Below, one piece after another: positions 9,472 to 46,796 of a stretch of 64,000 bases of DNA. Every line of letters starts with the position of its first letter. Position 1 is the stretch's first letter. The DNA comes from an archaeon. Lineage in GTDB: Archaea > Nanobdellota > Nanobdellia > Woesearchaeales > GW2011-AR9. The stretch lies in the NCBI GenBank assembly GCA_023265925.1, contig JAHFSD010000001.1, forward strand, positions 3,309 to 67,308. The letters are read 5' to 3'. Both the position numbers and the translations under genes were made by a program. The notes below the pieces were generated by a model. That model saw only the letters and a program-made list of their open reading frames with translations. It had not been told where the DNA came from and searched no databases.

Positions 9472-9642
9472 TTAATCACCGAGTCCAATGGCTATAAGAA
9501 TTATTCCCAAGACCAGAAATCCGGTTCCCGCGATGGCCAGCCCGTAATTCCCCGCAGCAAAGGAAGGTATTGCCGCAACAATGCCTACTAATGAACTAAT
9601 CACTCCCGCCACCATCAGCACATTTTTTTGAGCGTGTTTCAT
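9472..9642 (-). CDS. small membrane protein (start moved to an internal ATG)
   Basis: The upstream 45 codons of ORF 9472..9777 overlap the tRNA 3' exon and intron. An ATG at 9642 begins MKHAQKNVLMVAGV followed by two TM helices. Confidence 0.4.
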   Translation of the reverse strand: MKHAQKNVLMVAGVISSLVGIVAAIPSFAAGNYGLAIAGTGFLVLGIILIAIGLGD

Positions 9643-9688
9643 GATAGAGGCAAGGTTTTTCTCTATGCTTAAAAACCTTCCTCTCTGC

Positions 9689-9693
9689 AAAAA
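9689..9693 (-). terminator. oligo-T tract just downstream of the tRNA
   Basis: The minus strand reads A73-TAC-TTTTT-G immediately after the acceptor 3' strand. Confidence 0.4.
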
Positions 9694-9696
9694 GTA

Positions 9697-9918
9697 TACG
9701 GCTGCCGGGATTTTCTGATCAGTTACACTATTTTGATAGTATCGTGGGGTCTCTGAACGGAGTGAGGAGTACCCCACTTGAGCACGACTTGCATAGTGTA
9801 ACTTGCTATCGAACCCGGATCACAAGCTTTCTCCGCAAAGACAGACAGTCTTTTTGATGCAACTTTTTCTTAAAAAGGTGCGTGGGAAGCTCGGATCATG
9901 CCACTAGACCACAGCCGT
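9697..9918 (-). tRNA. tRNA-Gly(CCC) interrupted by two introns (54 nt in the anticodon loop, 97 nt in the T-loop)
   Basis: I folded this by hand on the minus strand. Acceptor ACGGCTG (9918-9912) pairs with CAGCCGT (9704-9698), then A73. The D-arm is GTCT/AGTGGCA/TGAT. Anticodon stem CGAGC (9893-9889) pairs with GCTTG (9827-9823). The loop is TTCCCAC with anticodon CCC at 9886-9884. T-stem CCGGG (9818-9814) pairs with CCCGG (9709-9705). T-loop TTCGA + AT rejoins to the canonical TTCGAAT. The spliced length is 71 nt. Confidence 0.75.
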
Positions 9919-9964: not shown

Positions 9965-10561
9965 TTAGGGATGGTGTGGTTGTAAACGGCACCATTCCTG
10001 TTCCCGATCAGCATATCCCTCTTTCGTCGACAACATCGAACGGTTAAATCCAGCTATTCTTCTCCTCTTTTCAAATCCCGCTCGCGCGGCTAAGATGCTT
10101 ACGACCAAGTCTAAACCATTCTTCAAGGAAGTTCTCGTGTCAGAACTCAATTCTTCCTGCAACTGCTCGTATTCTTCTGAAGAGATTTCACAGAGCGCGT
10201 ACGGTTCCCGGGAGGGCAGGGGTAGAATGAATTGACTTGATACTCCCGAGGTAACAACAATGAAATCATCTCGACGAACTATTTCTGTGGAGTTCAATGA
10301 GAATCGGATCGGTCGTAAGGATGGTCGAAGTGAAAATTCGTACAACAGTGATTTGCCCGTCCGGAAATATTCAACTCCACCAAGATATAATGCCGATTTG
10401 CCATTCACATAGTTGGCCGATAGAAGAAATCCAAAATATTTTGAAGTATTCTCGATCGGCAGGAGGGCAGGGGTGTCACAATCTACTGTGGTCTTAGAGA
10501 GGGGGAAAATTCTGGCTAAGCCCTGATCAACAGTATCTATATACTGGGACTCACTGGTCAT
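9965..10561 (-). CDS. hypothetical protein
   Basis: 198-aa ORF with no recognised motif. Confidence 0.5.
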   Translation of the reverse strand: MTSESQYIDTVDQGLARIFPLSKTTVDCDTPALLPIENTSKYFGFLLSANYVNGKSALYLGGVEYFRTGKSLLYEFSLRPSLRPIRFSLNSTEIVRRDDFIVVTSGVSSQFILPLPSREPYALCEISSEEYEQLQEELSSDTRTSLKNGLDLVVSILAARAGFEKRRRIAGFNRSMLSTKEGYADREQEWCRLQPHHP

Positions 10562-17893: not shown

Positions 17894-18057
17894 GTAATAC
17901 TTTAGCTTCCTAAAGTGAAGCTCTACCATCTTCTCGCCTCTCGTTGTATTTATCGAGGGCAGACACCCCCGGATGGGACAACCCCCCGTCTGCTTGCTGT
18001 AGCGCCCGAGGAGGCTCGACCTGAGGATGGTAGAGCTTCACAAAGCTAAAGTATTAC
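17894..18057. mobile_element. MITE-like non-autonomous element with terminal inverted repeats and 8-bp target-site duplication
   Basis: The TIRs are GTAATACTTTAGCTT...GTGAAGCTCTACCATC (17894-17930) and its reverse complement (18026-18057). They share 15 + 16 identical nt around a small indel. The flanking direct repeat GCGAGTGG occurs at 17886-17893 and 18058-18065. The element has no coding capacity. Confidence 0.6.
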
Positions 18058-46571: not shown

Positions 46572-46685
46572 ATCACCAAGAAGAACCCCTATCCTATATA
46601 AACATTTGGCTTGCCGGTAGGTGCATAGCGAGAGGCAAGAAATTACTGGCTGGCCGGGACATCCTGATTAGTCCGTGATTTCGGT

Positions 46686-46796
46686 AAAAAAAACATTCCA
46701 CAAACTACTCGCCTAGTAAGTGTCGTGGGGCTTTATGCCCCACCTGAGTACGACTCGCCTAGTGTAACTGGCTGACCAAAACGCCCCACCTACCAG
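46686..46796 (-). ncRNA. candidate ~100-nt small RNA carrying a module homologous to the tRNA-Gly T-loop intron
   Basis: Plus-strand 46738-46772 matches 9772-9806 at 30/35 positions. It has a GTGGGGC/GCCCCAC hairpin. A TATA-like ATTTATAAT (minus strand, 46804-46812) lies upstream, and T8 on the minus strand (46686-46693) lies downstream. Confidence 0.3.

Follow-up and report, generated by a model that had tools for sequence, protein, structure and literature searches.

We describe a tRNA-Gly(CCC) gene on the minus strand of a 64,000-nucleotide (nt) stretch of archaeal DNA, hereafter the window, which spans positions 3309-67308 of contig C5 in an assembly (G000) of 1.2 Mb, 57 contigs, 47% GC and ~86% completeness. 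The gene is very probably functional and contains two introns of the kind removed by the protein splicing enzyme EndA, one of 54 nt at the canonical position 37/38 of the anticodon loop and one of 97 nt at position 59/60 of the T-loop. The second intron belongs to an intron family, here called R1, that recurs in other tRNA genes of the same genome, and would have been copied into the gene recently.

The gene starts with ACGGCTG-T-G-GTCT and its 3' exon reads TCCCGG-CAGCCGT-A (Table 1). Because of the two long introns, neither ARAGORN nor Rfam (gathering and E-value searches) detected a tRNA in the unspliced DNA of the window. After removal of the 54 and 97 nt, ARAGORN called the remaining 71-mer tRNA-Gly(ccc), with all four stems present. 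An earlier note on this DNA had proposed a tRNA-Gly(CCC) with one intron in the anticodon loop and another in the T-loop, and had named ARAGORN as a check; the spliced 71-mer and the orthologues described below bear it out. When intron 2 alone was removed, ARAGORN misplaced intron 1 and called Ser(aga), so its intron options alone are unreliable for this gene. The identity of the gene is no chance match, because its three exons, taken in order, are identical at 68 of 71 positions to an intronless tRNA-Gly(CCC) downstream of ftsZ in the relative L001 (L001:5563-5633, ACGGCTGTGGTCTAGTGGTATGATCCGAGCTTCCCAAGCTTGTAGTCCGGGTTCGATTCCCGGCAGCCGTA). This orthologue scores 61.3 bits on RF00005, for which the gathering score is 29. 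A BLAST search of the incomplete assembly found no second tRNA-Gly(CCC).

The signals flanking the gene have counterparts among its orthologues. Upstream of those in G001, G005, G018 and G040, A/T boxes are found at roughly -26 to -35, and T-runs follow those in G001, G005, G018 and G037, but not those in G008, G040 and G051. The first acceptor pair, A1-U72, had been flagged as atypical for tRNA-Gly. The pair is real and is conserved, together with C2-G71, G3-C70 and A73, in every tRNA-Gly(CCC) orthologue seen; tRNA-Gly(UCC) of this genome has G1-C72. A1-U72 is a lineage trait of the isoacceptor, not an error.

Table 1. Features of the tRNA-Gly(CCC) locus, in window coordinates.
Feature	Position	Strand	Description
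tRNA-Gly(CCC) gene	9697..9918	-	222 nt unspliced, 71 nt mature; CCA not encoded
Exon 1	9883..9918	-	36 nt, positions 1-37; acceptor 5' strand ACGGCTG, D-arm, anticodon stem 5' strand, loop UUCCCA
Intron 1	9829..9882	-	54 nt, canonical 37/38 position, strict hBHBh' motif
Exon 2	9808..9828	-	21 nt, positions 38-59; A38, anticodon stem 3' strand, variable loop, T-stem 5' strand, T-loop UUCGAU
Intron 2	9711..9807	-	97 nt, T-loop position 59/60, R1 intron family; R1 covariance model E = 3e-20
Exon 3	9697..9710	-	14 nt, positions 60-73; U60, T-stem 3' strand CCCGG, acceptor 3' strand CAGCCGT, discriminator A73
TATA-like box TTTAAAAA	9943..9950	-	centre ~28 nt upstream of tRNA position 1; read directly; putative promoter
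T5 run	9689..9693	-	3 nt past discriminator; read directly; likely archaeal terminator
Small membrane-protein gene, probable true extent	9472..9642	-	56 aa, ATG at 9642

The nearest relatives by FtsZ are metagenome-assembled genomes labelled Candidatus Nanoarchaeia or Woesearchaeota, which places the host among the DPANN archaea. Across all relatives compared, introns of tRNA-Gly(CCC) occupy the same two sites with identical junctions, and the occupancy of these sites varies. L001 and G051 have neither intron. In L002, G008 and G040 the 37/38 site alone is occupied, and the 59/60 site is as empty as in the two intronless genes. A 59/60 intron alone is present in G018, where it is an R1-type intron of 83 nt from a different R1 subfamily, and in G037, where it is 31 nt of unrelated sequence. 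Both sites are filled in the present genome, in G001 of the same genus (34-nt unrelated T-loop intron) and in G005 (47-nt unrelated T-loop intron). Introns related to intron 1 lie at the same site in L002, G001, G005, G008 and G040, several of which share the hairpin ACUUUUUAAGAAAAAGU. The site is empty in L001, G018, G037 and G051, and in relatives without intron 1 the exon 1 block is contiguous with exon 2 by BLAST. The intact T-loop of L001, G008 and G051 reads TTCGATT. The T-loop introns of G001, G005, G018 and G037 are all bounded by TTCRAT on one side and TCCCGG on the other, and end in GAAAG, GGAAA or GAATG; each of these ends is able to pair with U54-U55-C56(-R57). The L002 gene (L002:3571-3696) has the T-loop TCCGATT, with C at the normally invariant position 55, possibly as an assembly error or in a decaying copy.

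Intron 1 also has a relative within the genome. A 37-nt block of it recurs with 95% identity within the 37/38 intron of a tRNA gene on another contig (C44:83-254, minus strand); two ARAGORN runs named this gene differently, as tRNA-Phe(gaa) and as Ser(tga). This similarity suggests a second shared intron family.

Across the whole genome, ARAGORN reported 13 tRNAs (3 intronless and 10 with a single intron) and the Rfam tRNA model only 7 above threshold. With so few recovered, most tRNAs of the genome must contain introns and be processed. We scanned for a T-stem followed by TTCRAN, an insert, N60 and the complementary T-stem, required in addition a matching acceptor stem, U8 and the D-loop GG, and selected by hand the candidates with G+C-rich stems. 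This heuristic scan yielded a 59/60 intron in ~20 credible tRNA genes and in three more with further introns in their 5' parts (~23 in all), and an intact T-loop in 12, so that ~2/3 of the detectable tRNA genes have a 59/60 intron. The counts are heuristic, but the pattern is not in doubt: as judged from the sequence, 59/60 is the dominant non-canonical intron site in this genome. The view that a long T-loop intron is unusual thus does not hold for this organism. Most of these introns end in YGAAAR, which pairs with the conserved T-loop U54-U55-C56(-R57). Permuted and intron-containing tRNAs of Thermofilum and Cyanidioschyzon presumably also use position 59/60.

Intron 2 belongs to a family, R1, for which BLAST found ~10 full-length intron copies in the genome at 75-84% identity, plus several partial ones. 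Compared over their full length, ten copies in different tRNA genes are 72-83% identical to intron 2. R1 introns are ~80-140 nt long, and their alignment runs from GCMAGTTACACTAKGCRAGTCGTACTCARGTGGGR through a variable loop to YCCCACGAYACTGGCAAAATRRTGTAAC and a variable tail. The consensus folds into a long irregular hairpin composed of P1, P2, an ACUCAR bulge and P3. Two P3 pairs covary within the family, and P1, read directly, covaries between subfamilies (GUUACAC/GUGUAAC versus GUAACC/GGUUAC). An R1 covariance model gave 14-17 matches in this genome, five in the same-genus G001 and between one and five in each of seven other genera of the taxonomic family; it gave none in the same-genus G002 and none in 24 genomes of other families of the order. 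By in-silico splicing, the clearest hosts of R1 at 59/60 are the tRNA genes for Arg(CCU), Asp(GUC), Val(UAC), Ser(UGA) and Gly(UCC). One further copy occupies 37/38 in a gene that was assigned to tRNA-Ala(UGC), and its tail is fitted to the anticodon loop there. A brute-force solver for multi-intron splicing recovered most R1 hosts, although the anticodons are ambiguous for several (e.g., C55:14421 and C37:3362), whose isotypes were left unassigned. All eight exact-core R1 matches in JGI metagenome contigs sit at 59/60 of tRNA genes in the sense orientation, and the copies in relatives mostly do the same, at exactly this position. The R1 core had no match in viral contigs.

Within this family, intron 2 is 83% identical to the copy in tRNA-Arg of the same genome, versus 64% to the R1 intron of the orthologous gene in G018. 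As intron 2 is closer to paralogues in its own genome, and the 59/60 site of the gene is empty or differently filled in relatives, the comparison points to recent intragenomic copying, by which intron 2 would have arrived or replaced a previous occupant.

Two other identities for intron 2 were considered and rejected. Insertion as a miniature inverted-repeat transposable element (MITE) or DNA transposon does not fit its flanks, TTCGAT and TCCCGG, which lack a duplication, despite an 11-bp inverted pair near the intron ends. Intron-encoded C/D-box small RNAs (sRNAs) occur in euryarchaeal tRNA-Trp. However, neither the R1 core nor the consensus has K-turn, C/D-box or H/ACA features, an RUGAUGA C box is absent from the consensus, and CUGA is found only in the tail of intron 2 itself and is not conserved in R1. 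Rfam gave no match on the strand of intron 2, and for ten R1 loci searched at E <= 1 it returned tRNA fragments only.

R1-like cores were also observed outside tRNA introns. In the 16S rRNA gene of this genome (C51:36990-37110), an insert directly after GGATTAGATAC holds an R1-like core, AGTGCACTCAAGTGCCAC...GTGGCACGACACT (covariance model E = 0.065), so that the module also seems to sit in an rRNA intron. A stand-alone copy lies in the window at 46680-46796 on the minus strand (E = 2.7e-10), with TATA-like boxes upstream, a T8 run downstream and, after the copy, an apparent tRNA 3' fragment, TCCCGG-CCAGCCA-G; by eye, no tRNA gene could be built around it within 46614-46796. Another stand-alone copy is at C28:39593-39687. 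A MITE-like family with the terminal inverted repeat GTAATACTTTAGCTT and 8-bp target duplications is represented at 17894-18057 of the window and at C55:30859-31056, with relatives on C3, C23 and C1, and an R1-like core takes the place of the interior in the C55 copy. At C39:3990-4120 (plus strand), apparently outside any tRNA gene, two R1-like units with the common tail CCCACGATAGGCGTTACATYCCCAACCCTTTCGGCA stand in tandem. Further copies outside introns, at C27:13824-13932, L098:687-779 and L100:1501-1584, are flanked by direct duplications of the 3' ends of neighbouring genes, namely 17-20 bp from the T-arm/acceptor portion of tRNA-Ala(CGC), a tRNA 3' part (G014) and 45 bp of an apparent SMC-like gene end (G015). 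Some cores are antisense beside such duplicated tRNA 3' ends. The layout of duplicated ends looks like att-type or recombination scars, and the presence of R1-like cores in a MITE, in a 16S rRNA insertion and beside duplicated gene ends hints at DNA-level events.

A broader reading of these data, which we regard as possible but tentative, is that R1 is a small mobile structured RNA module able to colonise any RNA gene that offers a splice-competent site. The variable 3' tail would then be tuned to the host loop, with YGAAAR matching the T-loop UUCR and CAUGAG matching the anticodon loop of tRNA-Ala, and the universal T-loop would serve as a generic landing pad, which would explain 59/60 introns in ~2/3 of tRNA genes. 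Spread might occur by reverse splicing or ligation via EndA and RtcB followed by conversion to DNA, or by micro-homology gene conversion between near-identical T-arms. The core of the module (P2, the ACUCAR bulge and P3) may serve as a binding site for a protein or endure as a stable circular RNA.

A mobile R1 element might instead have landed in the T-loop and killed the tRNA, leaving a pseudogene from which the 97-nt insert is never removed. Such an event would be in keeping with the R1-like cores outside tRNA genes, including the MITE with its 8-bp duplications, the stand-alone loci and the antisense copies beside duplicated tRNA 3' ends, as well as with the imperfect bulge-helix-bulge (BHB) motif at 59/60 and with the prospect that tRNA-Gly(UCC) might cover GGG. 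We nevertheless consider it very improbable. The exons are intact and agree with the intronless orthologue at the 68 of 71 positions given above, the promoter-like box and T-run are kept, and the assembly has no other Gly(CCC) gene. Moreover, ~23 tRNA genes have 59/60 introns of like orientation whose 3' ends pair with the T-loop, and these genes cannot all be dead; the eight metagenome copies and most of those in relatives are likewise sense and exactly at 59/60.

In the preferred reading, a functional gene with two protein-spliced introns, the junctions differ slightly from those first proposed. The earlier note had the lengths of both introns right and each junction wrong by one base: intron 1 was placed at 9881-9828, which makes nucleotide 38 a C rather than an A, and intron 2 at 9808-9712, between positions 58 and 59, which rejoins the T-loop as TTCGAAT in place of TTCGATT. 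We assigned the junctions to 37/38 and 59/60 because the orthologue loops read UUCCCAA and UUCGAUU and because this placement agrees with the BHB geometry. For intron 1, a scan for BHB motifs found a helix H of 4/4 bp (U32.G, U33-A, C34-G and C35-G), a helix h of 5 bp and a helix h' of 3 bp, with the 3-nt bulges CAC and AAA and cuts after 9883 and after 9829. This strict scan is unspecific, with many chance matches in A/T-rich stretches, and the junctions were therefore fixed by the orthologues. The first placement has only a slight chance of being correct. Both placements give a legal cloverleaf that ARAGORN calls Gly(ccc), and from the sequence alone each site is ambiguous by one base. However, a shifted cut would disagree with the loops of the intron-free orthologues, the strict BHB of intron 1 was found solely with a cut after A37, and the usual cut after the second base of the intron 2 bulge, A-A-U60, puts the 3' cut before U60. 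All other 59/60 introns of the genome also take the form TTCRAN, intron, T-stem.

Intron 2 is itself strongly structured, with a minimum free energy (MFE) of -29.7 kcal/mol (z = -4.3; 0 of 200 shuffles as stable). The inner pairings that had been read from its sequence, AGTTACACTAT with ATAGTGTAACT and GTGGGGT with ACCCCAC, both form. In the MFE structure of the T-arm plus intron 2, the 5-bp T-stem is followed by the 3-nt bulge A-A-U60 and by a helix between U54-U55-C56 and G9715-A9714-A9713. As a splicing motif, this corresponds to the T-stem as h and to an H of three Watson-Crick pairs plus a G57.A mismatch, with A58-U59-A9807 as the 5' bulge and a lone G9806-C9717 pair as h', beyond which lie an internal loop and an 11-bp helix. 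H measures 4 bp in 15 of the 20 scored 59/60 introns, and 3 bp in the remainder and in intron 2 (one uncertain case excluded). A check for BHB motifs at both junctions, as the earlier note had advised, thus returned a strict hBHBh' motif at intron 1 but no more than a relaxed one at intron 2.

Based on these structures, a pre-tRNA would be transcribed from the A/T-box promoter and end at the T5 run. EndA would cut intron 1 at a textbook BHB and intron 2 at a BHB-like structure with the T-stem as its outer helix. At the latter site, the G-A-A of the intron 3' end would pair with U54-U55-C56 of the T-loop, leaving A-A-U60 as the 3' bulge and A58-U59-A as the 5' bulge, and the long hairpin of the intron would draw its two ends together. 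RtcB would join the three exons and probably circularise the introns, and CCA would be added later. Genes for both enzymes were identified. EndA is encoded at C53:25213-25875 (minus strand) with an N-terminal and a catalytic domain (PF02778 and PF01974), and RtcB (PF01139) is split over the contig ends C3:7-657 and C30:1-647, which makes these two contigs probably adjacent.

Several observations weigh against this scheme. The BHB of intron 2 is relaxed, both in the mismatch within its 4-bp helix and in the single G-C pair after the 5' bulge. EndA looks like a short alpha4-like protein and is the apparent sole EndA: over 150 residues aligned with Methanocaldococcus jannaschii EndA (1a79) it has essentially no insertion, only a Lys/Glu-rich N-terminal tail, and L3 was not mapped precisely on it, so that an L3 insertion may still be present. 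Pfam searches for N- and C-domains and relaxed tblastn found no second EndA subunit in the assembly, at its ~86% completeness. Enzymes of the alpha4 type are classically regarded as strict in their substrate, and the main tension arises because a relaxed 59/60 motif coexists with an EndA of apparently strict type. Finally, tRNA-Gly(CCC) is not strictly indispensable, as tRNA-Gly(UCC) could in principle read GGG.

Self-splicing group I and II introns have a size above ~200 nt, and with 97 nt and no Rfam match at E <= 10 this identity was rejected for intron 2. Removal of the segment without EndA, by group I-like self-splicing or another RNase pathway, is the least probable of the alternatives: the strong structure of the segment and the resemblance of EndA to the strict alpha4 type would suit it, but 97 nt is far below the size of a group I/II ribozyme, no Rfam family is matched, the same intron family occupies a 37/38 site with a loop-adapted tail, and the arrangement of T-stem, 3-nt bulge and UUC-GAA pairing is typical of EndA substrates.

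The neighbouring genes of tRNA-Gly(CCC) look like FtsZ, SecE and NusG/Spt5 from their open reading frame (ORF) translations. An ORF predicted at 9472..9777 crosses the tRNA gene and had been suspected of being over-extended. In tblastn searches, its residues 1-30 match only translations of R1 copies, whereas a paralogue on C4 aligns with residues 45-101. The ATG at 9642 is therefore the most likely start of the membrane-protein gene, which leaves the tRNA gene free of overlap (Table 1). The annotation of this locus needs correcting, as the ORF track crosses tRNA-Gly(CCC) and standard finders miss the gene. On the same strand at 10006-10065, within ORF 9965..10561, we observed a weak and probably chance Rfam match to the archaeal C/D-box sRNA sR49 (19 bits, E = 0.2).

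tRNA genes with multiple introns, including non-canonical BHB introns, are known from the Thermoproteales (Marck & Grosjean 2003; Sugahara et al. 2007, 2008; as cited in PMC4090602 and PMC4033280). The genes described here resemble them in having several predicted protein-spliced introns per gene, of which one is at 37/38 and the rest lie at other positions, some in the T-arm, in junctions that lie in a BHB or relaxed BHB, and in being missed by standard tRNA finders. Unlike the Thermoproteales, the host is a DPANN archaeon (FtsZ-bearing, with a 1.2-Mb genome) rather than a crenarchaeote, and the 59/60 site dominates, with ~23 genes. The host also has a single short alpha4-like EndA instead of the (alpha-beta)2 EndA with its Crenarchaea-specific loop. 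Similar introns in different tRNAs of the Thermoproteales have been read as the result of intron transposition (Fujishima 2010, as cited in PMC4090602 and PMC4033280). R1 shares both features of such copied introns, namely similar introns in different isotypes and positions, and presence/absence polymorphism. It differs from them in its length of ~80-140 nt, its conserved and partly covarying hairpin core and its 3' tail complementary to the universal T-loop UUC(R), and in that R1-like cores also occur in a 16S rRNA insertion, a MITE and stand-alone loci.

In several DPANN lineages, studied in a panel that included a Woesearchaeota genome, an alpha4-type EndA has been linked to more disrupted tRNA genes, and its broad specificity has been ascribed to an L3 insertion (Kaneta et al. 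2018, PMC5829648). The parts of that paper cited here also describe predicted DPANN tRNA sets as incomplete and call for manual curation, and tRNA-Gly(CCC) is exactly such a hidden gene. Unlike the EndA with an L3 insertion in these parts of the paper, the aligned region of the present enzyme is essentially without insertion relative to M. jannaschii EndA, with the caveat on L3 mapping given above. The 59/60 hot spot and the R1 family have no counterpart in the same parts of PMC5829648. The combination of many non-canonical introns with a minimal alpha4-like EndA makes this enzyme a good candidate for substrate-range biochemistry; if true, processing of such sites by a loop-less alpha4 EndA would call for a revision of the link now accepted between the architecture of EndA and its specificity.

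In Asgard archaea, most tRNA genes are interrupted, many introns were missed by annotators, and introns were gained repeatedly with a preference for BHB-compatible sites, but a 2026 survey identified no general way in which introns arrive, copying from one tRNA gene to another included (bioRxiv 10.64898/2026.10.13.758758). Unlike in that survey, one intron family of the present lineage can plainly be seen to have been copied from tRNA gene to tRNA gene. R1 appears to be caught spreading, with a site that is empty, differently filled or R1-filled among close relatives, and the lineage therefore offers a concrete, recent and sequence-traceable test case. Multi-intron archaeal tRNA genes and the copying of introns were already known; new here, and specific to the lineage, are the hot spot at 59/60 across it, an intron tail that pairs with the T-loop, and R1.

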